Shown piece by piece: positions 21,860 to 61,689 of a stretch of DNA of 64,000 bases. Within the stretch, counting starts at the first letter, position 1; every line of letters begins with the position of its first letter. The stretch lies in contig OZ076409.1 in NCBI GenBank assembly GCA_964187785.1, forward strand, positions 21,392,001-21,456,000. The letters run 5' to 3'. Both the position numbers and the translations under genes were made by a program. The DNA comes from Amphiscolops sp. MND2022 (Eukaryota). Under the pieces are notes generated by a model that worked only from the letters and a program-made list of their open reading frames with translations, made no database searches and was not told the DNA's origin.

Positions 21860-22190
21860 TAAATCGCATAGCGGGAAAAAACCCTAACTGGTCCCTCTAT
21901 GCTCACTACACACTGTTTATGCTATAAATTGAAGGGGCTTTGGATTTAAAAATTTCAGAAACAGAGTCAAAGAGTGCCAAAAAACCCAAAAGTTAGACCC
22001 TTTCATTCTCCACTTTTTGAATGAAAAATTAGTGTGGGACTCGAAGCCACTTGTTCCTGTTCTCAGGCCCGGAAATTCCCGCTAACCTATAGACCAAGAG
22101 GCGGGAGCAGATTAGGAATTGTGTCAGTTCGTGGATTTGAAAAAGCCACTACTGTAGTTTGTGTTTTCTGTCGAAAACGGCGACTAAAAA
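21860..22190 (-). mobile_element. Family A Helentron-like fragment with a tRNA-like cassette (22031-22105)
   Basis: 5' end GGCGACTAAAAA. On the minus strand, A box TGGTCTATAGG and B box GCTTCGAGTCC. Confidence 0.65.
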
Positions 22191-22339
22191 TCAGTGAACT
22201 TTGATTTGTCATCAATGACTTTTTTTATAATAACTGGAACTTTTCAATGGATGTAACTCCCACTCTTTCGGGTCAACAATCAGTGAGTGCATGAGTGCAG
22301 TAGTTCGGACTTGTGTGTGTTTCTTTTGGTTCGTTTCAC

Positions 22340-22596
22340 CAGGATTGGTTAAAACTTTCTAAACCAGAGTTTCAGATGTGACCGCCAAAACAAAACGCCA
22401 GTTTGCAGACTTTTCCAGGTTTCAGTCTATTCCGAATATTTCCTCTCATGAAATTCTTCTCACGCCACATCAAGCGGGCGTCGTCCTTTTTTCATAATCC
22501 TGAAAAAACAACAAGACAAGGGATTCTGCGCACCCTTGGAAACTAGCGTTGTTTTAAAACAGTTTTCAAACACCGTTTTAAAACATGTCAACTCTG
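22340..22596. mobile_element. Degraded hAT MITE
   Basis: Ends CAGGATTGG/CAACTCTG resemble those of 41714-42139. Flanks CGTTTCAC/ATTTTCAC match 6 of 8. Confidence 0.6.
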
Positions 22597-22641
22597 ATTT
22601 TCACTGAATACTGAGGTTTGTCTAACAGTCCATGACTTCAG

Positions 22642-22849
22642 GTCAGAGCATTTTCTTCACGGGGAGTGCTGGAACAGGGAAATCTTTTCTGTTGAAAAAA
22701 TTGATATCTCACCTGGCCCCGGAGACAACGGTAGTGGCTGCGAGTACTGGAATGGCTGCGTGTCAAATATCTGGAACCACATTCCACTCGTTTGCCGGAA
22801 TCGGAACTGGCTCTGAGTCTTATGATGAATGTCTCAATCGTGTTATGAG
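22642..22849 (+). CDS. PIF1: PIF1 exon 2 (Walker A)
   Basis: [37 protein letters not shown]...CAG acceptor and GTAGGG donor. Confidence 0.95.
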
Positions 22850-22907
22850 GTAGGGCAAACACTTTTTAGAGTAATGCTTTGGAACCAGTTTTTGAGGAAT
22901 TATATAC

Positions 22908-23108
22908 AACAAGACGCCCGCTAAGCACCGGGATATTTTCCGCCCTGTTCGCCTTCACCAACTGAGCCATAGCTATTTTAGGAGGGGAATAGGATCTAAA
23001 GAATAAGATCTAAAATTTAGTGATTTTAGATCTTATTCCCGCCCTGAAATTTTAGATCTTATTCCCTTTAGATCTTATTCCCTTTTTTGACTTTAGATAT
23101 TATTCCCG
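22908..23108 (-). repeat. Family C Helentron-like 3' end plus a small TTAGATCTTATTCCC repeat element in PIF1 intron 2
   Basis: AACAAGACGCCCGCT...GATATTTTCCGC also occurs at 32430. Inverted and tandem 15-mers at about 22985-23108. Confidence 0.6.
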
Positions 23109-23302
23109 CTGTATGCTATTTTAGTTACTTGACTATTTTAGTTACCAGTAGCTATATAAAATAGTCAATTAATCAAAAGGTGGAGATTTGGCAAAATTTG
23201 GGGAAAAACGCGTCACAGATCATGATTTTCCTCCCCGATCATCATGATGTGCTCCGCGATGCTTTTTTAAATACTTACAATTACTCATTTTGTTTGTTCC
23301 AG

Positions 23303-23906
23303 CAAGCCAGCGGTTGTGAAAAATTATCGGAAATGTCGAACTTTAATCATTGACGAGATCTCAATGATAGACGGAGATTTCTTCGACAAAGTGGAATATG
23401 TAGCTCGCAGTGTCAACCGCAACGATAAACCTTTCGGAGGAATACAATTGGTACTTTCTGGAGACTTTCTTCAACTTCCTCCGGTGAATAAACCCGGAGA
23501 AGCAGTCAAAAAGTTCTGTTTTGAGGCCGGATGCTGGAACGAGTGCATAAATAAATCAATTGAGTTGAGAACTGTCAAGAGACAATCGGATGAAAAGTTC
23601 ATCAAGATTCTCCAACTGATGCGAATTGGGCAGCTTTCAGACAACCACAAGAAGATACTGCTGGACACGGCTTCTCAGAACATAGAAAAGAACGGAATAA
23701 AGGCGACAATTTTGTGCACACATAAAGAGGATTCAAATGCCATAAATGAGAGCAGACTTGATAGTTTGGATGGTCAAGAGAACGCGTACAGTGCAGTGGA
23801 CTCGGGAGACAAGGCCAAGTTGAATGTACTCACCAACGCCAAGGACAGATTGGTGCTCAGAGTTGGAGCTCAAGTCATGTTGACCAAAAACATGTCCACG
23901 TCACAG
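23303..23906 (+). CDS. PIF1: PIF1 exon 3 (Walker B, motif III)
   Basis: LIIDEISM, PFGGIQLVLSGDFLQLPPV, GAQVMLTKN. Frame-compatible AG/GT boundaries. Confidence 0.95.
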
Positions 23907-24525
23907 GTTGGAATTTTTGGGTGTATTTCACTCACCAAGTGCAACTCTAGTGCCCTTTTTGCCGGGGTACTAATTGCTGGGAGCTCCGATTGAATAGTTT
24001 CAGACAATACGCAGGTGGTCTCTTTAAGAAGAGGGGGGCTGTATGTTTATTATGCTTGACATTGCTGTATAGCCAGTCGAGGCCATGTTTAATTGTTAGA
24101 GGCGAGGGGTATTTATTCATGATTTTGACCTTAGGTAGCTACAAGCAGTTCAACCCTGGCAAATTGGAGCACCAGAGAATGTTAAACAAAATGTTAGTCG
24201 CCGTTTGAGGACTCGTGCATTTGCTGTATCTAATGAGAAGGGCGGTACCTTTTATGCATTTACTAAGACATTGCGGCGTCGATGTTTTTATTCAAAATCA
24301 TTTCGGAACAAGTTGACGCATGTGATGTTCTGTTTTGATGATCGAAATATGCTATCATTCCTAGTCAGTCTAGTAAGTTTTCATCCCTCATTATATTCAA
24401 AATGATAACTCTAAGGTACACTATTGTTTTTCTTCAACATCTTTGGTACCTATTCACAATGACCATGATGATGTTGCATTTTTGTGGGTATACCGAGCTG
24501 AAAAATTGAAATGGACATGTTTCAG

Positions 24526-24681
24526 GGATTAGTGAACGGAGCACGGGGTGTAGTTATAGGCTTCAACCCTAAGCGAAAGAACTACCCAGTTGTGAAGTTT
24601 GTCAGTGGAGTTGAACGAACAATCGAGCCCGCCAAATGGATAGTGAAACAGGCTTTCGGCTCTGACATGGTCAGGACGCAG
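24526..24681 (+). CDS. PIF1: PIF1 exon 4
   Basis: GLVNGARGVVIGF...PVVKF...RTQ. TTTCAG acceptor and GTTTGT donor. Confidence 0.95.
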
Positions 24682-25048
24682 GTTTGTTGCGTTCGTGAAC
24701 TATATTCCACTAATGATTTATCTTTCGATGGGTTTTTCGGGATCTATGAGAACATTTTCATTACCCCACTGGCTATATAAAATACACTGTCGGAGTCCAA
24801 GTTTACAAAACATTAAAAGGTGTGATAATTTAGGAGAGCTTGCCAGGTTGATCACGGAGCTTCGTATATCGATTTTCGCCCGATCTAACAGCTCATGAAT
24901 TGGCTCTAGATTCGCTAACGCGATTTCATTCTCGATATGCGAATTATTAACCTGCATTTTAGTGTAAATTGAATTTTGGTATTTTCCGCCTGAATTATTT
25001 TAGCACCAACATTTTTGGGCGTTTTAGTCGTTGATACTTGAACATTTA

Positions 25049-25581
25049 TTTTTAGTCGGCGCTTTTTCCTTTTAAGGAAAAATGCCCGACTCTTACAGTG
25101 ACCTTTTTTTTACCCTGACCTCCTTTCATTTTTTTTTACTTTTTAAGGTAACCTACAAAACCGGACGAGACTAAAGGGTCCCCCGTTTCGATTTTTTTTT
25201 CGGCACTGTGACTTTTCTGACTTGTTTTCCGAATTTTTTTAATGTCTCAAAAGGGTCCCCCTTCGAGCTTTTTGATATTTTGCAACTGAATGTATGTTAA
25301 TAAATCCCAAAAGGTAACTTTTGTAAGCCCCTTTTACATTTATCGGCACTATGCGACATTTTCCGAAAGAAAAAGTCCGGTGTTTTTTCTCGAAAAAATG
25401 TTTTATTTCTTCCCAATTGGGGGAAAATGGTTCCCGAGTCTTATCGAGCTTGAAAGGCAACCTTTGGGTGTCTCGAAACTGTTTTCTGAGCTTTTCATAA
25501 ATACGTCCTGGGCAGATTTTAAAAACTTAGCGCTTTTTGAGACTTAGATATAGCGCCAACTTTAGAAGTTCTCGTCTTGTT
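25049..25581 (+). mobile_element. Family A Helentron-like element in PIF1 intron 4
   Basis: TTTTTAGTCGGCGC...GCCCGACT 5' end; TTAGATATAGCGCCAACT...CGTCTTGTT 3' end. Confidence 0.8.
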
Positions 25582-25706
25582 TGTGTATAAAATTGGAACA
25601 ACTAAGTTATGGGGAAAATCGCGACTGGGATTAATTTTGCTTCATATAGAATATGGAGGAAAATAAAAGTGATGATCGCTAATCATTTCCCTTTTTGCCC
25701 TGGCAG

Positions 25707-26018
25707 ATTCCTCTGGCACTGGCCTGGTCCATTTCCATTCACAAGAGCCAAGGAATGACGTTGGACTGTGTGAGTGTTTCTCTCAGCAAAGTGTTCGAGT
25801 GTGGCCAAGCCTATGTTGCGCTTTCCAGGGCCAAGTCGCTGGATACTTTAAAGGTGTTGGACCTGAATGACAACAGTGTGAGGGCCAACCCCCGTGTGGT
25901 CAAGTATTACGTGTCTCTGCGTAAGAATGCCATGGGTCAGATGCAAATGCAGCCGATGGCGTTGGGGGAAAAGTTCGCAAAATCCACTGGAATGCTGAAA
26001 CGAATGAAAACAATGTAA
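25707..26018 (+). CDS. PIF1: PIF1 exon 5 (motifs V-VI, stop); spliced CDS 1950 nt = 649 aa
   Basis: [30 protein letters not shown]. The exon lengths sum to an intact frame. Confidence 0.95.
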
Positions 26019-28918: not shown

Positions 28919-30117
28919 TACAATTCCGGGGTGGGAAGAAATTCAAATAAACTGTCGACTGATACACGAGCGTCCAATAATTCTCAGTCTTGGAAATTCT
29001 CAATCTGAGCAAAAAGTGTTACAGTAGAGGGAAAATTGATCCAAACTCTTGATTGTGAAAATTGCTTCGGACGAAAATATTAGCCGTAAATGTTCAAAAA
29101 CAATCAAAAATTTCAGGAATTGTTGAAGACAACAATTTCCTGGAATTTTATCTAGTTTACATTCGTGATTTTTTTAATGATCAAAGTTGAGCAAAATGAG
29201 ATCAACATAGACACATGTTTTAGCATAAAACTCTGCCCAGCAAACCGAATGTTCTTTCAGAAACTGAAACATGCTTCAATTGTTAATTACTTTCAATTTG
29301 ATCGCAAAAATTTGCAAGACACTCAGATGCACTGTAATTGAAATAACGAAAAACTTCTAGAGAGCCAATGGTCCCGAATACCCGGTTTTTTGAGTATTTG
29401 TACATTATATATATCGTCCGGAAGTTTGTCAAACTGGAGCGCGAAACATTTCTCCCAACTACTATACAATGTCTAAACACATGAAATGGATCAGAATACA
29501 TTGCTTTCAGAAGTCACTAATTGCTCACGAAAATAACATACTGCAAACTGAAACTTACGATAAATGACCTTTTACCCTTATTATTTTCCGCCCATATTTC
29601 ATATGGGAAAGGAAAATATTTAAATCAAACGTTTTTTTTTACAAAATTTGCCAAGCACCAAATATATACTTAACTTTAAGGGTGTTACCCATAGAATTCA
29701 ACTCACGTAAATTTAGCTTCGTGCGATTTGTATTTGTGGAGATTTCTGGACTTTTTTAAGTTGACCCCAAGGACCCCAGAATGACCCAAAAATGACCCCG
29801 AAAATGAAAAAAATTGCAAAAATTTTTGATGTTTCAAGGCAGTTTTTGTCAATATTTTGAGAGATATCGTAAATAACAAGTTGAAAATGATCAACAAGGC
29901 ACAAACTCGTTGTCCAATAGTCTTCTATGAAGAGATAATTGATGTTTTCCAGAAAAAAATTTCAAAATGACACCGAAAATGACGAAAAACCAAAAAAATC
30001 CCGATTTTTAGCGGCTTTTTGCACATGACGTAGTCAATGTGCATTGCAGTCCAGCTAAGTAAGTTTTTTTCCACTATAGTCAACTTCATAATGAGCGCCT
30101 TTTAGAAAAAAGCCAAA

Positions 30118-30188
30118 ACCCCAGAGAGATTCGAACCTGCAGCCTCCCGATTGCACGGCATAAGTGTTGACCACTGTGCCATAGGGAC
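30118..30188 (-). repeat. tRNA-derived (SINE-head-like) segment
   Basis: A box TGGCACAGTGG and B box GGTTCGAATCT. The anticodon arm is not canonical. Confidence 0.7.
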
Positions 30189-30409
30189 GTTATTGATCAA
30201 AGTTGAACTGTTGAATATATACGCATGCAATTAAAATAATGTATATACGCATATTAAAATAATCGATGTCTTCGTCATGTGTTGCGAAGCACCGCTTCGC
30301 CTCTGTGTAAATGTTTGTCAAATCATCGGTAGACTTCATGCATTAGAATGTGGAAAACGCTCAACATGGCACTACTTCGTTGTTCAGTAGGCTTTTCCCA
30401 AGAGATAAC

Positions 30410-31450
30410 TGCTGTTTTCCGAATGAAAAAAATCTCAAATTGACACCGAAAGTAAGAAAATTCCCAAAAGTTTCAATTTTTCAGAGTTTCTACGCATTTT
30501 TCGTCCAATTTTTGACAGACTTCGTGGATTGGAATATATTCAAGGTTCGACAAGGAAAGGGATGGATGTCCAGTAACCTTTCTTGAAAAGTTTATTTCGT
30601 TTTTCCGAATGAAAATGTCCCAAATCGACACCGAAAATGACAAAAATTCCAAAAATTATCCCATTTTCAAAGATTTTTTGCCTTTTTCCCCACTTTTTGA
30701 CAGACTTCGTCAATTGGAACTTTGAAAAGGGTCAACAAGGAGAAAAGTTGTTGTCCAGTAGGGTTTTCTTAAGAGATTGCAGTTTCCTAAGTGAAAACGT
30801 CTCAAATTGACACCAAAAACTACAAAAAACCCGAAATTTTCCAATTTTCAAAATTTTCATGCATTTTTTGTTGAAGGTTCGACAAACTTCGTGGATTGGC
30901 ATGTTTTGAAGCGTCAACAAGGAATGGGTTTGTTGTCAGATAGTTTTTTATGAAGAGAGGATTGCAATGTTCTGAATGAAAATGTCTCAAATTGACACAG
31001 AAAATGACAAAAATCCCAGAATTTACCAAGTTTCAAAGATTTTATGCATTTTATCCCAAATTTTTGACAGACTTCAGACTTCGTCAATTGGAACTTTGAA
31101 AAGAGTCAACAAGGAGAAAAGTTGTTGTCCAGTAGGGTTTTCTTAAGAGATTATTGCACTTTTCTAAGTGAAAACGTCTCAAATTGACACCAAAGACGAT
31201 AAAAAACCAATTTTCAAAATTTTAATGTACTTTTTGTTGAAGGTTCGACAAACTTCGTGGATTGGAATATTTTAAGGGGTCAACGAGGAAAGGGTTGGAT
31301 GTCCAGTAATCGTTTCTGAAAACATACTTGCAATGTTCTGATTGAAAATGTCTAAAATTGACACCGAAAATGACGGGTGTCCAGTATGCTTATTTATGAA
31401 GAGACATCTGTAGATTCATGTTAGAAAAGTTCCTCTAATTGACCCCAAAG
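30410..31450. repeat. ~184-bp tandem repeat, about 5.5 units, alternating A/B variants
   Basis: AAAT(T/C)GACAC anchor at about 30437, 30622, 30805, 30989, 31181 and 31356. Confidence 0.85.
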
Positions 31451-32429
31451 TTGTCAAAACTATTTCCAATTTTTGACACTTCTGGTGAAACTATGTGCAA
31501 TAATATAACGACCCGGGATCGCTCAACCTCCCTAAAATTGCAATTGACCTAAATTAAAGCTTTTACCATTCTCAGTGCCACAAATTACCTCAAGAAATAC
31601 GCCTGAGACTAGGAAACCACTTTTTCCCCAACAAAAATCACAAAATATCTAATTTTTTATTTTTACCGGTACCGCTCTATGATGGCGACACGAGTATTAG
31701 CTCGCAAAACTACTTTTCTCAAGCCGAAATCAGCTATGGAAGCAAGGGGGTACTCTTTGACCAAATGAAAGTTTCGGAAAGACGCACAGTGCAGAAAAAA
31801 CTGAAATAAGGTAATTTCCACAATCAATAAGAAACTTCGTTAGTTCCATATGATGAAAAGTAACAAAGAAGTCACCCTTAAAACTCGGGAAACTTATTTG
31901 TTTTTCAGAAAACCTCAAAAACTAAAAATTGCGGGAAATGTTTTGAGAAAATTATTTTTAAAAATTCTAATGGAATTTTTCTCTTTTCTCGGAAAGTCGC
32001 ATAGTGCCGAAAAACGAAACGTGGCCAGCTGTCGCAGAAATATTAAATTAGGCGTTTCCTTCAAAATGGGCTCAGTTGAATCAAAGCACTTTTTTCATCG
32101 AACTTCTTTGCGTTTTTTAGTGCATTGGCTACTCTTCAGCCTCAAATTTATGTAGTTGTAGAACAGTTTGAGGCGGAAAATATCTCGCTGCTCAGCGGGC
32201 GTCTTGTTCTATTCCCAATTATTGCTCCAATAAATTTTTACAGCCTTGTGGGTTAGAAATAAGGTGTGCCGGGGGTGGGGGAAATGAGAAACATTACCCC
32301 GCACATTTTCGTCATAAAACAAAATGCGTTTTTGGAAGTGTTTTAAAAAATTATCGAAAATAGGCTCCTGTGGGGCACTAAAAATTCTGCTTCATGCTAC
32401 AATACTCAAAAACTTCAATGTTCAATAAA

Positions 32430-33001
32430 AACAAGACGCCCGCTATGCACCGGGATATTTTCCGCTATAAAAAAATGTAACGCTCCAGCCCGCATTCGAA
32501 CCCATGACCTCGTGACTGGCAGGCAGACACTACCAACTGTGCCACGGTGACTAGTTTATCGTTTCACTAAATGGAGTAAATAAAATGGACTAATTTTGTT
32601 TCTGTTATTTGCTCTTATGTTATTTGGTACGTAATCATTATTCACGGTACCAGTTTATACCGCCTTTAATTCTCGGACTAAAGCAAATATAACTACTAAG
32701 CGTAGACGGAGTTTCGCATTTGCATTTGAATGCAGGCGAAGCTCTCCTAGAACGAATAATTAACACTCATTCGCTTCATCTCAATAACTCGGCTTACGAA
32801 TGCATAATTACCACTCGCTCGTTTCATCGCACGAGAAAATAATTGTTGTCGGCAGCTTGAGAAATTTAAATCCCTTGCTTATACTCACTGCCGAACAAAA
32901 TATCTGAATTTTCTAGTAGATACTCGAATCACGTACAAAAATTTGGCAGAAAAAAGCGGCAAAGTCCAGATTTCAATATTTTTCCTGCTATCGCAGAAAT
33001 A
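32430..33001 (-). mobile_element. Chimeric Helentron-like element: family B 5' end and body, tRNA-like cassette (32482-32551), family C 3' end
   Basis: The body is the reverse complement of much of 38433-38790. The cassette has TGGCACAGTTGG and GGTTCGAATGC. The 3' end matches 22908. Confidence 0.75.
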
Positions 33002-34511
33002 AGAAAAGAAGCCATGCCATTACTATAGTCTGCGTTTTCCACGGAAGAAAGAGCCGAATAAAAACGATAACATCAAAGCGATTGCACTTAATAAAAAAGA
33101 TCCAAAAGTGTTTATCGTGCGGGGGCTTACGGAATTCATATAACATAAAAATAAAACCAAAGGACCATGTGTTCAATTTAACCCCAAGCGGCCGCAGGGG
33201 AAAAGACGCAAGGTTCAAAACCATTATGTCGACATCGTTTGCGTTGAATCTTGGTCCAATAAAGTAATTGATGTCGTTATAATCCTATCCATTGCATGAC
33301 TGTTATTTGAAAGTTGCTCATTAGATTTTATCATGGAGAAAATTTGCGTTGAAATAGGGGCCAATTTATACAATTTTAGCTTGTTCCAAGCGTGAATTTC
33401 TGCTATTTTGGACAATAATATCGAAAAATTAGGGTACATTTTTTGCCTGAAGTGTCAAAACAGTTGTAGAGACAATCCTCCTCTAAGTATTTACATTCAC
33501 AAAACATTCTCTTATTAGTGAATTATTTTTATTCAAGAACAAAATGAATGTACTTTGTTGTTGAGGGGAGTGGGATTCGCAACAAGGTGTACCAGCGGGG
33601 ATTGAACAAATGGTCCGAACCGAATACCCGGTTAAACAATCGAACTCACGAAAGTATATCTGTAATTTTTATACTTTTTCAGTGAATCTTTTGATTTGTG
33701 AATGCTTTTGACCACTAAAATTCTCGGAAACAATTTTACTGTTTAGTGAAACTCATTTAATTTTTGTTATTTGAAAATAGTTTTGTTTTTAATATTTGCT
33801 CTTAATGTTATTTTGGGAATCCACCGTTTTGAATAACCACCGTAAAACCACGTACATGTTGGAAAAACGAGTTCTCAATTGAAGCATCCTTTAGTGAAGT
33901 TACCCTAATCCTTGAACCAACAGCAGTTACATTCCGTTTTGCTTGTTTTCCTGCTTTGACAAACAGCAGACTAAAACTGTAATTAGCTAGCTGTCTTTTG
34001 TTTCCAAGTTGTTTCAATAAGCCGATGTTTGTTTTAACTCTTCTCGCTGCCTCGCTGCAACAGTTGAACAAACACAAACCTTAACTTAATTGAGTGAGTG
34101 AGCATTACCGAACGTGAACAACTTCTGTTGAAGAACACGAAGAAGCTTCGCAGAATTGTTTTTGTTATCACGTTGTTACGATTTGTATTTATGAAATTTT
34201 CATTTCTTTGTTTTCCGCATTACCGTTTCATCAGAAATCCTCATTCAGAATGGTACATATATTTAGGAAAAATAGGACCATTAACGATTAATTAATAGAA
34301 AAGATGGTATTATTTAGGATCGAAAGAAGTGAAAATTTCATTCATATGCGATTGCTATAGTAAAAGTCGATCCTGAATAATTAGACTCCGGAGAGGCAAC
34401 TCAAATAAAAGGGCCGTTTCCTATTTCACACCCCCAGGTACATCTTGTTTTGGATTTCCCCCCTAACACGGAAGCTCTTGAGAGAAAAGTGCCCGACTAT
34501 TAAAGTGGCTA

Positions 34512-35085
34512 GTTTTTAGTCGGCGCATTTTAACAAAATGAGCCCGACTATTACAGTGGCAAGTTTTTTCTTTTTTTTCGTCAGATGACAGAATGTATGC
34601 GTAGTGGACACTTTTTACAGAACTACTAAACTACTGGACCGGCAAGCGGAAACGCCTCTAAGTTAGTGCAAAGGGTCCCCCCTTTCATTTACTCCCTTTT
34701 TAACGTTTCCAGATACAAAACCGGGCGAGACTATATGGTCCCCCTTTGCGTTTTTTCGACACTGTGCGACTTTTTTTTCAAAAAGCCCAAAGGGTCTCCC
34801 CTTTCAAGTTTTTCGGCACTATTATTATAATTGTTATAATTTAATTATTATACTAGTTATCTTACACTACTCCTGGGATGTAATTATGATATTAATACTT
34901 CTATGATGTCATGGTTCATATATCCCATCGAGAATATAGTGTTTCTTTTTTTTAAATATATACCCATTTATTCTCCATATATACCCACAAATTATTTTTT
35001 TTCAATACTATCCGTAACTTTGACGTAACATCTGGAGTAAAGCGCTATATCCGAATTTTTGACGTTATATCCGAACTATATTGCG
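34512..35085 (+). mobile_element. Family A element, 5' part
   Basis: TTTTTAGTCGGCGC...GCCCGACT start and AAAGGGTCCCCC subrepeats. The TATCCGAAC module is shared with about 61810-61875. Confidence 0.7.
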
Positions 35086-37031
35086 TTTTTAGTCGGCGCT
35101 TTTCTGAGGAAAAGTGCCCGACTCTTACTGTGGCTAGTTTTTTTTTTCGTCAGATGTTCCTCGAGAAATGTCTGCACAAACAAATAACTGCTTACGCAGA
35201 GAGTCGTGGGATACTCACACCATTTCAATTTGGTTTTCGATCGAAAGTTTCTGCGCAAGATGCCATTTTGTATTTTATTGAAACAATCCAACACGAGATC
35301 GAAATTGGAAATATAGTTCATGCTGTCCTACTTGATCTATCTAAAGCTTTTGACTCACTTTCACATCAAATTCTTCTCAAGAAACTCGAATCGTTACATT
35401 TTTCACCTTCTTCGGCTACACAAATCGTGGAAAGTTTTTTAACAGGTCGATTGCAACAAGTCTCTCTGAATGGTGTTCTGTCTGAATGGATTGAATTGAA
35501 ACAAGGTGTCCCCCAAGGAACAGTCGCAGGACCATTATTTTTCAACCTGTATGTGAATGATCTTCCAGAACTTATAAGCACACCTGCTCATATATTACAG
35601 TATGCTGACGATTGTTTAGTTTTCTGTAGTGATAAAAAAATCTGAGATTGCTCTTGAAATATTGCAAGACAATGTATATAAATTAGAAGAATACTTTTGT
35701 CTGAATAAGCTGAGTTTAAACGGAAGTAAAACGGAATTCATCACCTTCTCCCTCAAAAATGATAAACGCCTCAACGACTCAGAAACAGTTACTGTGGGCT
35801 CCACCTTAGTAAAGAAATCAGACCATTGCAAATACTTAGGTGTAACCATTGATAAACACCTCGGGTTCCAAAAACAAGTTAAAAAGGTGCTGAAAAATAT
35901 GGCAGTTGGTATAAAAACTGTTGAAACTGTCCAACACAGGTTTCCAACTGGGGTACTTCTCATGCTTTCCACGAACTTGTGATGAGTCACTTGGAATTTT
36001 CTCTATTGTTTTCCTTCAAAGTTAGTTCTTCTTTGTTGCTCTCACTAGAAAAACAGATGAATTGGGCTTTGAAAAGCGTGTTTTCTCGTTCGAATATCAA
36101 GTCATCTCTTGAATTGAGAAAAAACAAAGGTATAATCAGTATACGTCACTTGATTATGTTCAAATCCCTGATTTACTTCTTCCAGTACATTAATAATAAA
36201 AAAAGCTTTCCAAAACCCGTTGAAGTTACCTACAGCAACATATCGATGGAATTCCCGTACGAATCAAGTTATTTATACGGGTAATTTTTCATCTGTTTCA
36301 ACTTCATCATTCTTTCATTGTACTGCACTGAAGTGGAACTCACTACCATTACATATGCGAGATCCAAGTGTGAGTCTACATGTATTCAAAAGTAGATTGA
36401 AAATTCATCTGGAAAAAGAGTCAAATGCAGTTCCTATTCAAGTAGCTAGTACCTGGCGTGATTTCCGCTTCAAATAAACCTGTCTGTCTTTCTTTTTAAT
36501 TGTTGTAAAGTTCGAGAAAACTACTTATGCTTGCATTAGTCATCTACACTTATTGTATGGTAAGCTGTCAGCTATCCCCTTACAATAATATAGTGTTGTC
36601 TTTCTCTCTCAGAATACAATCTCACTCTGATTGGGCCACTTTCCTTACAATCGAAACTACTAAAACTACTACCATAAGGCCAAGTCCGGTCAGCGGAAAT
36701 TAGTGCAAACCCCCCTTTCATTTTTCACTATTTTAACGTAACCTACAAAACCGGACGAGACTAAAGGGTCCCCCTTTCGATTTTTTTGGCATTGTGCGAT
36801 TTTTTTCGAAAGTTTTTTAATGTCTCAAAAGAGTCCCCCTTTTAAGTTTTTTGATATTTTGCAACAGAATATATGTTAATAAAGCCCTAAGGGTCCCCCT
36901 TTTACATTTTCGGCACTATGCGACATTTTCTGAAAGAAAAAAATTCAAAAATTTCAAGTTTTTTTCAAAAAAAGTCTTTTGCGCTTTTTGAGCCTTAGAT
37001 ATAGCGCCGACTTTAGACGTTCCCGTCTTAT
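35086..37031 (+). mobile_element. Family A element with a LINE inserted
   Basis: 5' subTIR AGTCGGCGC; 3' GCGCCGACT plus AGACG-TTCC-CGTCT hairpin at about 37004-37028. Confidence 0.8.
35155..36610 (+). mobile_element. 5'-truncated CR1/L2-like LINE related to the tandem-array LINE
   Basis: QFGFRS, DLSKAFDS, GVPQGT, QYADDC, KYLG. MAVGIKT and EKQMNWAL resemble MAIGIET and EKQLNWTL in the array family. Confidence 0.9.
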
Positions 37032-37530
37032 TATTTCTGCTTCAGCAGGTATATTATTGTAACCTCAAACTGTCTACTTTTTTATCAGTACAATTTTTCG
37101 TACGATACTGAAAAATTCAGATATTTTGTTCGGCAGTGACTGTTAGCGTGGGAATTAAATTTCTCAAGCTGCCGACGACTATTCAATTCTAGTGCGATGG
37201 AACGAGCGAGTGGTAATTATCCATTCGTATGCTGACGTCATTGAGATGAAGCGGGCGAATGTTCGTAATTGTGCTTTCGTTGCCCCGAGTTATTGAGATG
37301 AAGCGAATGAGTGTTAATTATTCGTTCGTTGAGAGCTTCGCATGCATTCGAATGCGAATGCGAAACTTCGTCTACGCTTAGTTCTTATATTTTCTTTAGT
37401 CCGAGAAGAAGTTAAGGGGGTGTAAACTTGTACAGTGATTAATTGTGCGCTAAATAATGATTAAACAAGAGTGTATTGGTATTCCAGATATGATTCCATT
37501 ATTAATGAAAGATTAAAGCGGAGGGGCCTA
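37031..37530 (+). mobile_element. Family B Helentron-like element (deletion at the 3' end)
   Basis: Similar throughout to 38433-38910. Confidence 0.8.
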
Positions 37531-41672: not shown

Positions 41673-41713
41673 GTTAGTCTTAAATCATCTCACTCAATTT
41701 CCATCCTTTTGCT

Positions 41714-42139
41714 CAGAGTTGGCATGTTTTAAACAGGGGATGTTTAAAACACTGTTTTAAACACTGTTTTTTTGCGTTTTTTTGTATGTTTTTTTCTAAT
41801 GGTTTGCTCAATGTTTGGAATATTTTTGCGCCTCAAAATTATGTCGTAGTAGAGCAGTTGGGGGCGGAAAATACCTCGCTTGTCAGCGGGCGTCTTATTT
41901 TTTGTTTTCAACTGTTGCAAGATGCTGAACTCTTTCGATGCTCAAATTTGTTGAATTTCAACAACAAAAACATCCAAAAACTGTAGAAAAACTGCTCAAA
42001 ATGGTAAATTGTAGGGATAAAATCAGAGTTTTTGGGCATTTTCCTAACACGAAAAAATGATGTTTTAAACATGTTTTAAACGTTTATAAAACGTTTTAAA
42101 CGTTTTTTCTTGTAAAAAAGCACATTTTGACCAACCCTG
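41714..42139. mobile_element. hAT MITE
   Basis: TIR CAGAGTTGG/CCAACCCTG and perfect 8-bp TSD CTTTTGCT (41706-41713, 42140-42147). Confidence 0.9.
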
Positions 42140-42249
42140 CTTTTGCTGGTTATAATTACACTTGCGATAAGCAAGTGTTATGGGAACGTGCGAATTTTTT
42201 TTTTTCCGGGTGACAACTCTCTCATTTCAGACCGCAAGTCGCATAATTC

Positions 42250-42975
42250 AGACTTTTTTGGTCTAGTGGTAAGATGCCTGCTTTTCAACCCAGAGGCTCC
42301 GGGTTCGAACCCCTGCGTATGCGCTAATTTTTTTCAACCCAGAGGGTCCGTGTTCGAACCCCTGCGTATGCGCTATTTTTTTTTAAAAGTAATCCGAAGC
42401 AGAAGCTCACTTTTCCGGCACTGAGACCTGCCTACCCTTTTCGGCTTTGTGAGACTTTTCTCGAAATCTTTTAATGTCCTCAAAGTGTCCTCCTTTCAAT
42501 TTTTTTGATATTTTGCAACAGAACGAAGGTTAAAAAATCCCAAAGGGTCTCTTTCAGATTTTTCGACACTATGAGACTGTTAAAAATTCGCCTTTTTTCG
42601 AAAATTTTTCAAAGTCTCCAAAGGGTCCCTTCAGTTTTTGATATTTTCAAAAACAGAATGGCTGTTAACAAATCTCGAAGAGCCCCCTTTCACAGTTTTC
42701 GGCATTGCGAGATTTTTCAAAATTAGTCGTTTTTGTCTTAAAATTAGGTTTTCTCAGGCCCAGCACTCTATATCCGATCTTTTTTCAAAGACAGGTGTTT
42801 TTTCTATGCGATTTTTTAAAATTGGTTTTCATCGAAGCCCCCCTCAATTTTTACTAGAAACGAAACGTTTTGCGAGCATAAAGGACTACTCAAGGTTTTC
42901 GGCGACTTACCGGAGACCTTCATCAAAAAATTTTTCGAAAAAATTCCTCAATTTTCTGTTTTTTGAAAAGTTTTC
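42250..42975 (+). mobile_element. Family A body with a tRNA-like cassette (B-box segment duplicated)
   Basis: TGGTCTAGTGG...GGTTCGAACCC at 42260-42313, repeated segment at about 42331-42375, CAAAGGGTC subrepeats. Confidence 0.7.
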
Positions 42976-44169
42976 GCAAGTGTTTGCGAAGCACGGCTTC
43001 GCCTCTGTGTTGAATATAGTTCTAACAATGTCTTAATTATCAGAAGCTTTGTAAGCTGCCTACTAAGATTACCGTAGTTTAGAAAAGATTCCCTCGTTAC
43101 CGTAAAAATGGAACGAACAACAGCTAACAAATTTAACACAGTTAACAACCCTGCTTCGAGGCGCCAACCAATTTATTCGTACCAATTTTCCTCTGAGGAC
43201 ACGGTTGAATGATTACAAAATGTTTCACACCACTCTCACCGACCAATTTTAATTTGAAAAAACAGATCGAGCTCTATGCTACAAAGGTAACGTCAAAGAT
43301 TGTTACGGTTTAATATGGTAGACAAAATTATTGTAAAACGTGACTTATTCTACGAACTCTGGGGACAGTTAAAAGATTAAGTCTCGTTCTAGAATAGTTA
43401 GTTTTATCTACCATCTTAAGGTCTAAGGGATTGTAATGACAATTTTCAAGTTTGCTACCAAATATCAATACACGTGATTTTTTTAATGTGAACTTTCTAG
43501 AATTTATGCAATGTGTCCACATTCAGAAAATCGCGATTGTAGGTTGATGAAAAGTCTGCTGTGATGTGCTTCCCTTCAAATTTTCATTTGAAACCATTTT
43601 TTGGCAATGCAAGTATTTCAACCTCGAAAAGAGGTTTTTTGAAATGGAAATGCAATGGGACTTGAGCTTTAGATGTCTAAGGTAACTTTCGAGCGAACAC
43701 TTTTGAAATTGATTTCAATTCCCACCGAGTTTCTAACAACTCAAATTCGTGTTTAATTCGAATCAAACAGTTTAATTCGCATTAATCAGAGAGCGGTAAA
43801 GTATCCTATCAGCCACATTAAAGAAAAAATTCTTTGCCATGCTTTTTTAAAAAACTACTTTCATAGAATTCCATGGCAAAAGTTTTATTCTAAAGTATTT
43901 TATTCTAAAGTATTCAAAGTTGAAACTTGACCAGTCGAAAACGATATAAGTCAGTGTCCGTTTGAATTTTAGAATGAATAAAGGTGAACCTGGTGGAAAA
44001 ACTAATACACAAAATTTAATTTTGAAAACTTAAAAATTACCATCTTATTGGAATTAACTCTCGACATTTTTACTGGAGATTTACCCGATGTGCTATTTTG
44101 CCCTTGCTGTCTAATATTTCTATCACCAGACTTCTTTGAAAAAATTGTAGATACTGAGAAATCTCTCAT

Positions 44170-44476
44170 CAGTCCAACAGGGCCAAAAAGTATTTAAAGA
44201 GATTAAAACTACAAGAATAGAAAAGATTTTGCTTAACAGAAAACCTCAAAAAACAAAGAAATTAGTGAATTTTTTCGGAAAGTTCGAAATTTTCTTCGGT
44301 AATTCGCAGTACCGGTAATTCGCAGAACCTTAGAGACTCGGGACTCTCTAACCGCTAGGCCAAAAGTCGGGAGCAAGTTAGTTATAACATAAAACTCACA
44401 GAAATGTGTCAGTTCGCGGGTATCAAAAAGCCACTACTATAGTCTGCGTTCTCTATCGTCAGCTCCGACTAAAAAT
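44170..44476 (-). mobile_element. Family A fragment with an A-box segment
   Basis: CCGACTAAAAA 5' end, AAAAAGCCACTACTATAGT, minus-strand TGGCCTAGCGG. Confidence 0.6.
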
Positions 44477-46049: not shown

Positions 46050-47427
46050 TTTTTAGTTCATGTGGAAGGATTTTTAACTTTTGAGTAGAGAAAAATAGAC
46101 CATTGTAAAATTTGCAAAATTGTTGGCTTCGAAAAAAAAAGATTTTCTCCACATTTTGGAATATCTTACAGAAATTTTTCTCGAGGTGTCTCTGTAATGG
46201 CTACTGTTTTTGTTCAATTTAATATAGTGAGAGGTTTGTAACTAGAGTTATATGGTATAGTGAGATGCAACAACGATAGCTGAAAAGCGAAAATAGCGCA
46301 TGACTGTTTTCCTGCCAAAAACGCTCGCTGATAACGACTTCGATAGCAGGTCACACCTTTGATCACAGCTTTACTATGCTTTAAAATATTCTTTTTCCAT
46401 GGACTTACATTCCATCTACGCAGTGTAATTTTTGACGCGTGGATTTGTATTCCTCGTATAACGTTTTCCCATAAAAGACAAATTTGAAATTGAGGCAAGG
46501 GTCTTTTTTCAAACGAGCGACACTTCTGTGATTTCTTGAAGCTGAGAATCACTGTCCAAGTTTAATGTGGGTACATTAGACCGTTAGAAGAAAGAAAGTA
46601 GACTATTATGAAGCAACTGGAAACCAATAAAAGGCGAAGGTGAGATAGAAAGTACAAAGGGTTGTCTCTCAGTAGGTTATTCATGTTACAAGTTCGCAGG
46701 TACTAGAAAAGGAGCTATAAACTACAAAAGCACCATTTTTCAATATACCGTATTTTTTATTATCCTTCAGCTGTTAGAACGCTGGAAAATATCCCACCGG
46801 CGTGTATCTGTTATTGATGTCTGCCATTTTGTCTTTTTTGTTTTGCTGTTGTTCCTCATTTCAACTCCTTGGACTTTCGTTATCAATAACAGTAAAGCTT
46901 TCTAAAGTCTTTTGAAAAACATTGGGAACAGTAACGAAATGGTCAACTTGGAATTTAAAAAATCGTATTTTCAGAATTCTAAATTACGTTTCAAGCTAAA
47001 TTTGCTAGAGCATAACTTCTGACATACTTTTCAAAATGACGAAGTTGATGTGCACCATTTGCAGACGTTGCCGCCACAGTCAATTACTCAAATTACGGTA
47101 GATAATCACTTTTCTCAGCCATATAGAATTATTTTGACATTGAAATTTATTTTCTGACATTTTGAGCAGAGCTGGTGCGGTAAATTATTCTACTTCTGTC
47201 CATGGAAAATTTCCCAGCTCGTTAACTGCTTACTTTTTTGTCGTTATTTCTTTGATAGACTTCATTATCACGAATCGATTTTCCCAAATCCATCAAATAT
47301 AAATAACGACATGCCATTATGTATTCCATTGAAGAAAACCGCCAGCACTACCTTGCAGGTCAGTTCCCAGATTGACTCTTGAAGTTTCAGAGTTCCATAA
47401 TTCTGTAAGGTACTTTATCAAATTCAT

Positions 47428-48190
47428 TTTTGGTCGGTGCCTTTTACTAGTAAAAAGTGCAATACTCTTACAGTGGCAAGCTTTTTTTCATCAGTCACCG
47501 TGAAACGTCCACCTTTATAGATTTTCATAAAATTAAACTAACTTGCTCCACGCCATAGTTTTAATTCATATGCCACTTGGCCCAGTGGTCAACACGGATT
47601 TCCAGGCCTGGAGACGGAACATGGGAAGTAGGAGTATTCGGGGGTTCGAGTCCCACACGAAACCGATTTTTTGTATGTTTGCAGATATAGAGGAAAGAAC
47701 AGAGATTTTTCGGCGCTACGCGAGTTTTTTGAATGTTTTTAACGAGCCCCAGTTTTGCAAGTATAGAGGGCCCCCTTAAAATTTTTCAGTACTATGCGAA
47801 AAGAATCGAAATGAAATTTCCTCATACTTTTTGAGGTTTTCTGTTGAGGAAAACCGTTTTCCAAGTCTTGAGGGTGACATTTTTGGTAATTTTTAGGTCC
47901 TGTTGGACTGATAAATGCTTCGTCAATACCTGTGGAAAAGGAATACTGTTTTTTGGCACTGTGCCTGTTTTTTTTAATAAATTCATTTGTTCAAAGGGTT
48001 TACCCCCTTCACTTTTTCTCAACTTCACCCCGGTTTTCTTAGGGTATCCCCTTGGGTATTTTTTAGCACTGTAAATTTGATAACAATTTTCACAATTAGT
48101 TTCCCTTCGCATATTCAAAACACTTTGCTCTTTTTCAACCTTTTTAATTACTTTTTCGGAATTAATTTTGAATTACTTTTTGCATTACAT
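47428..48190 (+). mobile_element. Family A element (degraded) with a tRNA-like cassette (47578-47655)
   Basis: TTTTTGGTCGGTGC start, CTCTTACAGTGGC, TGGCCCAGTGG...GGTTCGAGTCC. Confidence 0.65.
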
Positions 48191-49639
48191 TTGCAAAATA
48201 ATTTTATCCACAGGTTTCTACAAAGGATTCACTCGAATTTGAGAAAAAAGAGCCACCAAGAACACTATAATTTAGCCTCAGAGGGTCTAGTGATGAATAC
48301 TCCCGTTACTCAAAACACAAAACTATTTGCATACATTTTAAGGGCCTCGTCCTCATGGAACTTGGCTTGCACATCCGGGCTCGGCGGGCGTCGTGTTGAA
48401 TTTTTCTTTTTCATCTGTTCATTTTTTAATCGGCACTTGTATGAAACATGAGCCGACTATTTGAATTCAATCCACTCGAACATACCAAAAAGATCTACAG
48501 TGCGCCTAAGATCTAACGAAGGTCAAAAGGGTACAAATACAAAGGGTCCCCGTTTTTTTTGGACAACTCCCTTCGTTTTTTTTCTGATGTTTCCAACTAA
48601 GGAAAAGGTTTTTGGAGCCCATCCTTCGAACATTCCTTTGGCAGTGTGATATTTTTGAGAGTTTTTTGAATCCACAGGAATTTGACAAAAACCCTCTCTA
48701 AATGTCTAAAAATTATTATGAAGAAATAAAAGGCCAGTTAGCATAGTTACAGTTACAGTGTGCCTTGTGTCCCCAGATGGTCGAGAATTTTTTAAAATTT
48801 TTTGGTATTGAACTATAGTACTGTAGATACCCTTTTCTGGTATGTTTGTGATCCTTACCTTATTTTTGAAGCGGGGCACCGACTTGTGCAATTCCAGGCT
48901 GGTTTTACTAAACTTCTATGTAACTATATGAATATCTTTTATTTTTTCCATTTATTTGTTTTCTTGCTTTCTTTGTAGCAAAAAAGGGACCGTGCGTACT
49001 GTGACTATATGAATGTGATAAGAACGGCCCGCATTGAAATCGTATTAGGCGAATTAGTGAAACCAATTCGGGATGGTAAAACTTGAAATGGGCTAGCGCA
49101 GTAGAAGGTGTGAATGGAAAAGGTTTTTCTGTATCTGGCAAGCTGTGGAATATTGTTACAATTTCGAAGAAGGTCATCTTCCTTATTGCTTCTGCCTCAG
49201 CTCGAGTAGTATTGCAAACCTAGTTCGACATTTTTCAGTGTAGCTGCTGTTGAAACAAATTGTTCAAATTAAATATCTTTTTACTGGTTAATTTCCAGAT
49301 CGTGTCGTTCACACTGAATAAAAACTCGACAAGCAGTGAGTGTTTTAGATGCTTTTCAGGCAAATTCACTGTGAAGCTGATGGTGTTACAACCATTTTAC
49401 GCTCTTTCAGTATCGACGGTTACTGATCTGTGAAAATGATACCCTGCTATAATTTTGACAAATTAATTTATCAGAGGGTAGACTATACCCTGGGTAGTAC
49501 ATATAACAGTACATATAACAGATACATTGAAAGACAAAATGAAAAAAAGTGATCCGAAGCGCTCTGAAAGTGCTTCCTAGAAGTTCAGAAGCTTTCCAAG
49601 AGGAAACCTGGTAATGGGAAAAAACATTTTTTGCCGATG

Positions 49640-50100
49640 TTTAGTCTGCGTATTTCTTTAGAAAAGAGCGACTATAGTACAGACTTTTTATCAGTTTTTT
49701 TCGATATACCTGAACTAGCCAACATATTTCTCCCAAAAGTTGCTCGGTCACTACCACTTTGCCTAGTAGTTAACGCGGATTTCCCGTCCCGGTGGCGAGG
49801 TCCAAGAAGCAGGGGTCCGTGCGTTCGAGTCTCGCACTAAACCAAAATTTTTTAAACGTTTGCAAAAGTAGGGGGTCATCCATTCAGAATTTTCTCGGCA
49901 CTATGCGACATTTAAACTCTTTTTCTCAATTTTCAGCAGAAACCAAACGTTCTGCGAGCATAGATGGCTACTTTTTTGGCACTATGTGATTTACCGAAGT
50001 TGAAAATTAAAAAAAAAGTTTCAAAAAAAATTCGAAAAAAAATTTCATAATTTTTCATTTTAATGAAGTTTCCTGAAAAGGAAACATGTTTCCCGAGTAG
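49640..50100 (+). mobile_element. Family A element (partial) with a tRNA-like cassette (49759-49837)
   Basis: TTTAGTCTGCG...GCGACTATAGT start; TGCCTAGTAG...GTTCGAGTCT. The body is shared with 42860-42940. Confidence 0.65.
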
Positions 50101-51109: not shown

Positions 51110-51652
51110 TTTTTCAGTCGGCGCATTTTAGTAGAAAATGAGCCCGACTCTTACAGTGGGTTGTTTTTTAGACGCGTACGGTTCACTTCTTTGTTCATTT
51201 GTTCAAGAACTTGATGAACTGAGGAGCTTCAATACACTAAACCTCAGAACCTCGCCAATACAAAAAGAAACAAAACCGACGTCCACAACCTCGAAAACAC
51301 AGTTCGGCTATCTAGGTGTTTTTCACTTCGATTTTTTTCGGCATTATTAGACTATTTTTTTTTTGCAATTTTTTGGATTGCGCCAAAGGGTCCTCCTTCG
51401 TTTGTTTCAATATTTTGCAACACAATGGATGTCAAAAAATCCCAAAGGGTCCTTTTTACATCTTTCGGCACTGTGACACTGTTCAAAAATGTCATTTAAT
51501 TTTTTTTTTAATTTTTTAAAATCTCCCAAGGGTCCCCCTTCATTTTTTTTCATATTTTGCAACCAAGTGGAGTTTCACAAAGCCCAAAGGGTCCCCCTTT
51601 CATAATTTTGAGCCTTAGATATAGCCCCGACTTTGGCCGTTCCCGGCTTGTT
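51110..51652 (+). mobile_element. Family A element, complete
   Basis: AGTCGGCGC start; GAGCCTTAGATATAGCCCCGACT plus GCCG-TTCC-CGGC and TTGTT end. Confidence 0.85.
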
Positions 51653-54414: not shown

Positions 54415-54832
54415 ATGTTTTCATCACACGTTGTCTACGAAGGTCTTGATACCTTTCTCAAGAGTGGGGGATCTGCAGGGGGTGATAAAAATCCTGGGCT
54501 GTCTGTTTTCCGCAATGGCAACAACTCGGATGATAGCCAATCAACCCTACCTGCTTACGGGTACGCCACTGCAAACAGTTCCCCGGTTGTGGAAACACGT
54601 GTCAGGAGCCGATCTCATGCCAACAAACAGAGAAAAACCGGCAACGGGTTCGCATCTTCGGTCAATGAAGCTGCTTTGTCTGGCGCCAACGACTGTCCCA
54701 CATACGAAGGGGTGTCTGCACTGTCCAGTTTTGGCCGGCCTTTATCCAAGTTATCCACTAACACTAATGTGACGTCATTACTCAACACTCCGGATCACAA
54801 AATGCCCTCCGGCTTCCAGCATTATGAAATGG
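54415..54832 (+). CDS. Probable coding exon (Ser/Gly/Asn-rich, Tyr motifs)
   Basis: 139 codons from AAAATG, GC-richer than the flanks. Phase-1 donor G|GTATTT. Confidence 0.55.
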
Positions 54833-55657
54833 GTATTTATAAATTCGTATGTCCTCGGTTTTAGTAGTATTCATGACGTATGGATTTTACGGACAAACTC
54901 ATAAATTGTTAAAAATAAGCAATAAAATGCGGAGGCAATCTTGCCTCTAACACAATTTGAAAACGAACAATATGATGGTGGTGCCTCAAGTCTTAAGTTC
55001 TAGACAAAAAATATTCCTCAAAGGTTGCGTATAAAGACGTACTAAACAATGCAATGGTTCAACTTCCAAGAATGACCTCTTCCGTAGTGTTTTCAAAATG
55101 CAACTATCGCTAATTTCGTTTGTAATTCGAAGTTTTGAAGATCTTTTTTGTCACGTCAACTCAGCTGAGCATCCTACGAACTCTGTCCTACAATTTTAGT
55201 CCTGTCAGTTAGAATGTTTTAGCAGTAGGTTCAAACGATCCCCTTTAACACATTTTCTAGGTCCATTTCTCTGAAAAATATTTATTACATATACGTGCTG
55301 GATTAACAGAAATTTCGTAGTCGGAAATTTTGTCGTCGGAATCTTCGTCGTCAGAATTTCCGTCTTCGTCGCACTTTAGCTTGCCTATTAAGAACTTTAC
55401 TTGAGTCATTTGAAACGATATAAGTTGAAAATTCGCAAATTCGGCAACGTAAACGTTTGGCAACAAGATGTCAAAAGTTTGCTTAGTTTCATTTTGTTGC
55501 TTGTCAATCATTCAAAACACCATCCATTTTGAGGACATCAGTCAGATTTGGCAGCTATACTTTGAACTTCAATCAATAAATCGCCATCCAAAACCCTAGT
55601 TTTTTTATCAAAGGCAGCTCGAAAACGTATTTGGTACTTTTTGATTGACGGTTCATA

Positions 55658-56780
55658 CTAGTTCAACCAAAAAATGAAACGCACAAAATATTCACTCTTC
55701 AAAATCGTAATATCTGATTTTTCTGAGTTTCTTGGCTTCGAAAAAAGTTGCCGAATTGAATGACTGACAAGCTGGTTTGCAATGTTCATGGTTGTTTTAA
55801 ACATTTGTTGACAAATATTTGATACTTTGAGAGCTCAAACATATTCATGCGTTCCGTTTTTAGTCGGCGCTTTTCGAAGAAAAACGCAGACTATAGTAGT
55901 GACTTCTTTTTTTTTAAAGACCAACGAACTGACAGATTTTATAAATTTTATAAGTTGGTACTAAAACTACACTAACACTAAACTGTGTCACGCTACTTCA
56001 CTGCCACCTGTCCACTACGGCTTTTTCGAGGTCTGACAAGCAGAATGACATGGGTTCGAGTCCCGCCATGACCAAAATTTTTTTGTGCAAATTTTTTTCG
56101 GCTTTGTGAGACTTTTTTCGCAAATATCTCCAAAGGGTCCACCCTTCATTTTTTTTGTCTATTTTGCAAAAGAATGGATGTTAAAAAACTTGCAAAGGGC
56201 CCCATTTTACATGTTTCGGCACTATGCGACTTACGGGAGACCAAAAATTTTTAAAAAATTTCAAAAAAAATCGGAATTTTTTTTTCAATTTTTCCTCAAA
56301 CGGGTACTGTAGAAGAGAATACTTGACACTTTGAAGTCCTTTTGTTATTTTTGAGCCTTAGATATGGCGCCGACTTGGGCCGTTCCCGGCTTGTTTATGG
56401 TTAAACTAGTACTAGGTGAACCAAAAAACAGAACGCACAAAAAATTTTATGCTCTCAAAATGTCAAATATTTGTCAACAAAATGTTTCAAAACAACTTTG
56501 AACGCCGAAATTCAGCTTGTCAATCATTCAATTTGACATTGTTTTCACCCATTTGAGTGTCAAAGAACTTTTACACCTGAAGTGCCAACAAAGTGACTGG
56601 TAATAATGTCTAGACTTTCTCGGAAAGTTTAAAGCATGCTCTGTTGAAGATGTGGTTACGTAATGAAAGCTTTGAATGCTCGACCGAAAAAGTGAATGCT
56701 TAACAGCGAATTGTTTACAAATATTACCATTTTTGAACACTGAAATATTTGTGCGTTCCGTTTTTTTTTGGTTCACGTAG
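55658..56780. mobile_element. Two adjacent Tc1/mariner-like MITEs (55658-56409 and 56412-56780) sharing a TA
   Basis: TA-CTAGTTCAACC...GGTTAAACTAG-TA-CTAGGTGAACC...GGTTCACGTAG-TA, with long inverted arms. Confidence 0.8.
55857..56395 (+). mobile_element. Family A element, complete, inserted in a T run of the MITE; carries a B box
   Basis: AGTCGGCGC (55862-55870)/GCGCCGACT (56367-56375), hairpin 56379-56390, GGTTCGAGTCC at about 56053. Confidence 0.9.
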
Positions 56781-61661: not shown

Positions 61662-61689
61662 GGTCTACATATGGTTTTGAAGATGGAGT

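Follow-up and report, generated by a model that had tools for sequence, protein, structure and literature searches.

Family A elements and their termini

We analysed a stretch of 64,000 nucleotides from Amphiscolops sp. MND2022 (contig OZ076409.1, positions 21,392,001 to 21,456,000), hereafter the window, in which positions are counted from the first letter. The window is animal DNA and contains a host PIF1 gene together with short elements of three end families (A, C and D) whose ends resemble those of DINE-1 elements and HINEs (non-autonomous Helentrons). Several elements carry a cassette composed of an A box, a B box and a run of T's, the parts expected of a tRNA-gene-type RNA polymerase III (Pol III) unit. 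All results on families and cassettes refer to this single 64-kb window and its seven to nine cassettes.

Motif and profile scans located 12 family A 5' ends (20533-, 22190-, 25049+, 33064-, 34513+, 35086+, 44476-, 47427+, 49638+, 51111+, 55857+ and 62419-), seven clear 3' ends and six copies with both. These counts bear out a preliminary description of the sequence, in which about a dozen copies of DINE-1/Helentron architecture were recognized. The 5' end consists of a T-run, the subterminal inverted repeat (subTIR) AGTCGGCGC and a partial inverted copy; the 3' end consists of the inverted subTIR, a 4–5 bp stem-loop and T's. SubTIRs at both ends measure 9–11 bp in families A, C and D. Folding was run on five family A 5' ends, and each gave a DNA hairpin (z −3.2 to −6.3). 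The 3' stems are weak (4–5 bp, z −1.1 to −1.9 in the four folded) and occur with two stem sequences. No flank repeat longer than 4 nt was present at any of nine element ends examined, in keeping with the earlier report that target-site duplications (TSDs) are absent, and no empty sites for family A were found in the window. A rolling-circle-type architecture is supported for family A, and the elements probably move by the rolling-circle route.

The family A 5' ends split into two subtypes, A1 (seven ends) and A2 (five ends). A cassette is absent from six of the seven A1-type copies and from five of the six complete family A copies. Four complete A1 copies without a cassette lie at 20094..20533 (minus strand) and 25049..25581 (plus), each inside a PIF1 intron, at 35086..37032 (plus), which is split by a LINE-type reverse-transcriptase fragment at about 35156–36620, and at 51111..51652 (plus). 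A fifth complete copy lacking a cassette, 61956..62419 (minus), has a shortened A1-like 5' end and a further 3' end at 61687–61744. The copies beginning at 25049, 35086 and 51110 had already been described as lacking a cassette, and none was found in any of them. The A1 copy at 34513..34830 (plus) likewise has no cassette, and its 3' end was not found. A probable decayed copy without a cassette occupies 48427..48905 (plus), with a probable thirteenth 5' end at about 48427 and a 3' end at E 0.027. Family A copies nest in each other, as seen from a partial second family A 5' end at 34482–34516, directly before the 34513 copy, and from the flank at 35024–35089, which matches the inside of the 61690–61930 copy.

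Cassettes in three end families

Five pairs of A and B boxes with at most one mismatch per box were found in the window, against a mean of 0.1 (maximum 1) in 20 Markov shuffles. Three of these pairs coincide with sites in the preliminary description and two, at 30127 and 32492 and both on the minus strand, are new. The box sites described earlier were recovered, 44330 with an A box only and 56053 with a B box only. In the six cassettes having both boxes, the A–B spacer is 31–54 nt.

Five family A copies contain the cassette type that we call alpha. The A2 copy at 21860..22190 (minus; 3' end not found) has its A box at 22096–22086, B box at 22047–22037 and a T5 run from 22028. The A2 copy at 49638..50100 (plus; 3' boundary uncertain) has its A box at 49759–49769, B box at 49822–49832 and a T6 run from 49848. 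The element at 47427..48070 (plus; 3' boundary uncertain) has an A1-type 5' end, with its A box at 47578–47588, B box at 47643–47653 and a T6 run from 47667. In the A2 copy at 44230..44476 (minus; low boundary uncertain) an alpha-type upstream flank and an A box (44362–44352) are followed by a hairpin and a 16-bp repeat in place of the B box. The A2 copy at 55857..56395 (plus) has lost its A box and retains a B box at 56053–56063 and a T7 run from 56078; it has both ends and is the only one of the five with a family A 3' end in sight. Longer family A copies without found 3' ends share an extra body module (31500–32050, 44230–44290, 47830–47910 and 49970–50100). The A box lies 94–151 bp from the 5' end in four family A copies and the lone B box lies at 196 bp, within the offset of roughly 80–200 bp given previously.

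The cassette near 42260 had been read as part of a family A copy without its 5' end. It sits instead 100 bp inside a complete family D element of about 850 bp at 42159..43010 (plus), which has subTIR CACTTGCGA and a 5' hairpin at 42159, an inverted copy from 42974 and a 3' hairpin at 42986–43002. This tRNA-length cassette (42259..42383, plus) has its A box at 42259–42269, B box at 42302–42312 and a T7 run from 42328, and its B box and T-run are doubled by a 49-bp tandem repeat. A second complete family D element, at 30022..30310 (plus; subTIR CACATGACG, 3' hairpin 30284–30300), holds a tRNA-length cassette in antisense (30106..30188, minus; A box 30181–30171, B box 30137–30127, T6 run from 30111), in which six of seven acceptor-stem pairs are kept. 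The preliminary description placed the cassettes in the orientation of their elements; with this antisense case, orientation is not fixed.

The second D element is nested in a family C element at 29582..32212 (plus), which also holds other nested pieces. The family C element has subTIR TATTTTCCGC, a 5' hairpin, a 185-bp central array (30415–31374) and a 3' end at 32173–32208, and its two ends presumably belong together. The 291-bp D element interrupts the 185-bp array with flanks in register with the uninterrupted units to within about 3 nt, which leaves no room for a TSD of the size made by short interspersed nuclear elements (SINEs).

A further tRNA-length cassette at 32426..32551 (minus; A box 32544–32533, B box 32502–32492, T7 run from 32475) runs directly into a family C 3' end. 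An A2-type family A 5' end (33013..33064, minus) lies 520 bp upstream of it, with a different repeat of about 300 bp between, and may belong to a separate element or to the same one. Two more family C 3' ends, at 22903..22969 (minus) and 41850..41903 (plus), have an A-box match at 22969–22958, just upstream, and an A-box-like match at 41850–41861, respectively; a single 12-letter match of this kind is weak. A 5' hairpin folds at two family D ends and one family C end, and the 3' stem-loop is 7 bp in family D and 4 bp in family C, where any single stem is weak. A candidate decayed cassette before a core-like motif (60860..60955, minus) was seen by eye and falls under the scan thresholds.

Homology groups and mosaics

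The spacers of the family A cassettes, previously thought to differ, are related at 22031, 47578, 49759 and 56053 in all six pairwise comparisons (p 0.0005–0.033), and upstream flanks tie 44330 to 22031, 47578 and 56053. On sequence comparison, family A holds one homologous cassette, alpha, that has diverged by indels, because the spacers of four copies are related and the upstream flank links the 44330 copy to them. Comparison of the alpha spacers with the three short ones showed no relation in 11 of 12 pairs (p > 0.05). Repeated acquisition, as first suggested, is thus not seen inside family A, where a single inherited lineage accounts for the cassettes, and survives only between end families.

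At least one of the two boxes is present downstream of five of five A2 ends and of one of seven A1 ends (Fisher p 0.015). Leaving out the 33064 end, which is 520 bp from its cassette, one of a different type, does not change this association. The only A1 end with a box, that of 47427, is linked to alpha, and this element is a mosaic. A second mosaic is the 42159 element, in which family A core repeats (42438–42723) lie between D ends. The alpha cassette and the 42260 cassette, though unrelated, meet the family A body at one and the same T-run (best p 0.001–0.003 for four of four segments, each compared with four A1 copies). The idea of a conserved slot is upheld to the extent that spacers of unrelated sequence, those of alpha and of the 42260 type, share this T-run joint; its fixed orientation is not.

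Origin of the cassettes

A run of at least five T's starts 13–16 nt after the B box in six of seven cassettes and 8 nt after it in the seventh. By tRNA numbering this position is 2–5 nt beyond the 3' end of a tRNA, the place of a Pol III terminator. The window contains 19 B-box-like matches, eight of which are followed 8–16 nt on by a run of five or more T's, against 0.57 in shuffles (maximum 2 in 30). All eight lie within elements and comprise the seven cassettes and one tandem repeat. None of the eight B-box-like matches outside elements has such a run, and the remaining three are reverse readings of the same T-arm palindromes. T-stems keep four of five pairs in five of seven cassettes, a pairing fixed in part by the B box itself. 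The 42260 cassette aligns weakly to positions 8–63 of the Rfam tRNA model (18.1 bits; cut-off 29).

No TSD was found at any of the seven cassettes, whose own flank repeats (4–7 nt) are no longer than those between unrelated pairs (4–9 nt). No 3' tail accompanies a cassette, and no cassette lies outside an element in the window. The preliminary description had argued against random SINE insertion and had proposed a search for free SINEs with tails or TSDs; within the window no free cassette, tail or TSD turned up, and the first argument stands. Its further term, a SINE hybrid, fits poorly: each unit is closed by a T-run resembling a terminator, and a SINE body, a tail and a TSD are all missing, so that the units look like captured tRNA genes. 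An origin from tRNA genes, with capture at the DNA level, is probable.

The cassettes are not functional tRNA genes. ARAGORN found no tRNA genes, the Rfam alignment is below cut-off, and the cassettes fold no better than shuffles (z −1.4 to +1.7). Retrotransposition of the family from its Pol III promoter was also rejected, since a transcript of that kind would not include the element ends. Given how Pol III is established to behave, the predicted transcript would stop before the core, would contain neither end and could not be a transposition intermediate.

The explanation that we favour, with somewhat better than even confidence, is that captured tRNA-gene units are neutral or nearly neutral, dispensable cargo of HINEs and have been swapped between end families. 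HINEs of the three families would move as DNA through a RepHel protein made elsewhere. Whole tRNA-gene-type Pol III units, consisting of an A box, a B box and a T-run terminator, would have been captured at the DNA level two, three or more times. The long-spacer alpha unit would have been inherited by the A2 subfamily and decayed by indels, and other, tRNA-length units would be carried by families D and C. Families would trade modules with one another, and the terminator T-run would be the point at which a module is joined to the family A body. The transcript of a unit, predicted at about 85–110 nt, ending before the core and including neither end, could not mobilize the element, and the Pol III unit would be cargo that the element does not need. 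The neutrality of this cargo is probable rather than observed.

Several observations weigh against this account. The 8–16 nt interval and the element bounds were chosen after the data had been seen. The T-run after alpha and 42260 doubles as the T-run of the family A body itself, leaving only three independent downstream contexts. The Rfam tRNA model gave no match for six of the seven cassettes, and a relaxed ARAGORN search (-ps80) gave 32 hits against 22–32 in shuffles, a result that was not used. The B box of the alpha cassette has three changes in 44 positions (p 0.003–0.13, depending on the assumed background) and is more conserved than pure neutrality suggests.

Selection, retroposition or a single capture

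Selection for a TFIIIC/Pol III site is possible from the pattern of conservation. A Pol III unit kept by selection is a tentative alternative to neutral cargo: TFIIIC or Pol III bound 100–200 bp from the 5' hairpin would keep the nicking end open or unsilenced, cassette-bearing subfamilies would spread better, and unrelated tRNA units would be recruited to the same slot. Of the 11-nt windows compared across four alpha copies, the B box is the most conserved (0.91, compared with 0.82 for the subTIR and a median of 0.36), although these four copies were picked by their boxes. The same slot is used by two unrelated cassettes, boxes occur in all three end families, and the boxes and T-run persist though tRNA folding is lost. 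A tRNA-like repeat of C. elegans, CeRep3, binds TFIIIC without Pol III according to the available text of its report (PMC6950938).

The distribution of the cassettes speaks against a helper of this kind. A necessary role for the cassette does not agree with its absence from most A1-type and complete copies as counted above. The B box is lost in 44330 and the A box in 56053, the 30127 cassette is antisense and the 32492 cassette lies at a 3' end. In addition, CpG is not depleted (observed/expected 0.95), so that a kept TTCGA needs no special protection. In its widest form, several unrelated rolling-circle families of one animal would have converged on tRNA-gene promoters, without tRNA function, as exchangeable helpers beside their nicking ends, TFIIIC/Pol III occupancy would aid mobilization by way of open chromatin, insulation or fork pausing, and thousands of TFIIIC sites would have been scattered over the genome; we regard this as a speculative and rather unlikely extension. 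Fork pausing at TFIIIC/Pol III sites is known from yeast.

A further, improbable reading takes the cassettes for heads of tRNA-derived SINEs: a few founder HINEs would have received them by retrotransposition, the SINE body, tail and TSD would have been lost, and the heads would have multiplied along with the HINEs. For bats it is documented that retroposed sequences entered Helitrons and were afterwards amplified (PMC4224331). A reverse-transcriptase fragment has inserted into the 35086 copy here, and cassette position and orientation vary among families. Such an origin has to contend with the absence of TSDs at all seven cassettes, with a T-run directly after the tRNA-like part in seven of seven, and with the absence of any A box, B box and T-run unit outside elements in the window.

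A single old capture, with cassettes differing only through long divergence and inversion, is very improbable: A-box regions resemble one another across 22031, 44330 and 42260, the 42260 and 30127 spacers score p 0.006 when compared and homology is easily lost in spacers of only 31–54 nt, but no match was found between the sequences upstream of 42260, 30127 and 32492, or between any of these and the alpha copies (18 of 18 pairs, p > 0.2), and the cassettes form two spacer length classes at different positions and orientations.

Host setting and other repeats

The PIF1 gene extends over 17081–26018 (about 17.1–26.0 kb), with an N-terminal PH-domain exon at 17081–17896 followed by helicase exons. 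Its best named matches are animal PIF1 proteins (48–55% identity), and four or more HINE-type pieces lie within its introns. A Helitron origin was considered for this PIF1-like helicase, which surrounds the first family A copies, and was rejected, given these animal matches and the PH-domain exon at 17081. No Rep domain was found in 20 scanned window open reading frames (ORFs; 19 of the 37 ORFs of at least 110 amino acids and one short exon). The terminus patterns matched no loci in metagenomes and none in viral contigs; a looser pattern gave two metagenome loci in GC-rich, coding-like DNA, which were dropped as chance matches.

Elements make up about 16% of the window by bounds that we set ourselves, and the cassette density is about one per 9 kb. 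The CpG ratio given above applies to the whole window and suggests that the host genome may have little CpG methylation.

Other repeats were noted in the window. About 3.4 tandem copies of a 1574-bp unit, 91–96% identical and with a reverse-transcriptase fragment on the minus strand, fill positions 1–5322. A 355-bp inverted-repeat element occurs at 12234–12588, 13914–14271 and 61388–61545; the two full copies are 94% alike and each lies within a retroelement fragment, and the 13914 copy seems, by eye, to be bounded by a direct repeat. Repeats of another family, 300–480 bp long, occur at 32637–32940, 37028–37508 and 38429–38845; one copy begins at the 3' end of the 35086 element, and another separates the 33064 5' end from the 32492 cassette. 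Remnants of decayed retroelements (11560–13020, 15180–16670 and 20650–21760) have a motif of the restriction-like endonuclease type and are, we presume, similar to CRE/NeSL-type elements; their 406-aa ORF had no Pfam match. Broken reading frames at 45150–45860 look by eye like the C-terminal part of a hAT transposase, and a 125-aa ORF there had no Pfam match.

Comparison with known elements

The comparisons below refer to the available text of the cited papers. DINE-1 and HINE elements have a 5' subTIR with a nearby partial inverted repeat and a 3' subTIR with a stem-loop (PMC2374699, PMC4067079). HINEs insert in TT or T-rich sites without a TSD. The elements described here correspond in structure to non-autonomous Helentrons and share with DINE-1/INE-1 and HINEs both subTIRs, the stem-loop, T-rich ends, variable central repeats, the absence of an ORF and, as far as the flanks show, the lack of a clear TSD. 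Their subTIRs are shorter, at 9–11 bp compared with 13 bp in DINE-1 and 12–15 bp in mite HINEs (PMC4067079). No GTCY microsatellite was found among 31 tandem-repeat rows covering 18000–64000, and an assignment to DINE-1 proper was dropped for want of this block. DINE-1 also differs in being reported without Pol III promoter sequences or tRNA similarity (PMC2374699).

The modular layout recalls that of pearl, DTC84 and Cg_HINE, with a left module, an optional spacer of two types, core repeats of 140–200 bp and a right module (PMC3879986, PMC7492417). In DTC84 the spacer between the left module and the core repeats is swappable, but neither pearl nor DTC84 is reported to have a full set of A and B boxes (PMC3879986). 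As in oyster HINEs, related flanks can hold unrelated cores; each oyster core is, however, kept to one flank pair, whereas the family A core here also lies between D ends (PMC7492417).

Capture of promoters, retrogenes and other elements by Helitrons is documented for bat Helibat, and in amplifying cargo the present elements resemble these rolling-circle carriers of host sequences (PMC4224331). The bat cargo differs in consisting of Pol II gene parts and other elements, and the main text of that paper never mentions tRNA (PMC4224331). The nearest proposal of tRNA capture concerns an Arabidopsis tRNA-Cys cluster under Helitron annotations, which according to its authors would be the first capture of a non-coding RNA (PMC10701932). 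The tRNA genes there are mostly intact and form a single tandem cluster, unconfirmed by Helitron finders; the units here are decayed, dispersed and spread over three families.

Dispersed repeats that do not fold as a tRNA and yet have A and B boxes spaced as in one also include tRNA-derived SINEs and CeRep3 (PMC6950938). In contrast to tRNA-derived SINEs, in which the head forms the 5' end and the body that follows contains no terminator, the boxes here are internal to DNA-type ends and are followed immediately by a T-run, with no body, tail or TSD. CeRep3, for its part, consists of putative tRNA pseudogenes with measured TFIIIC binding (PMC6950938), and our cassettes are known from sequence.

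No description of HINEs with an internal A box, B box and terminator was found in the literature searched, to which Repbase, most subscription journals and supplements did not belong, and this is weak evidence of novelty. The distinction between HINEs and SINEs has, in the papers available, rested partly on HINEs lacking Pol III promoters, and these elements would blur that test. Elements with DNA-type ends, internal boxes and a terminator are liable to wrong annotation, either as SINEs or as tRNA pseudogenes. With a cassette about every 9 kb of the window, such elements could add many TFIIIC sites through movement as DNA. Under selection, the cassette would represent a host-factor helper for rolling-circle transposition; under neutrality, it would be a clear example of cargo taken from tRNA genes, something that a 2023 paper treats as not yet demonstrated for Helitrons (PMC10701932). 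Taken with these relatives, the elements appear to be of a known kind whose tRNA-gene cargo is unusual, and the exchange and decay of that cargo would constitute their new feature.

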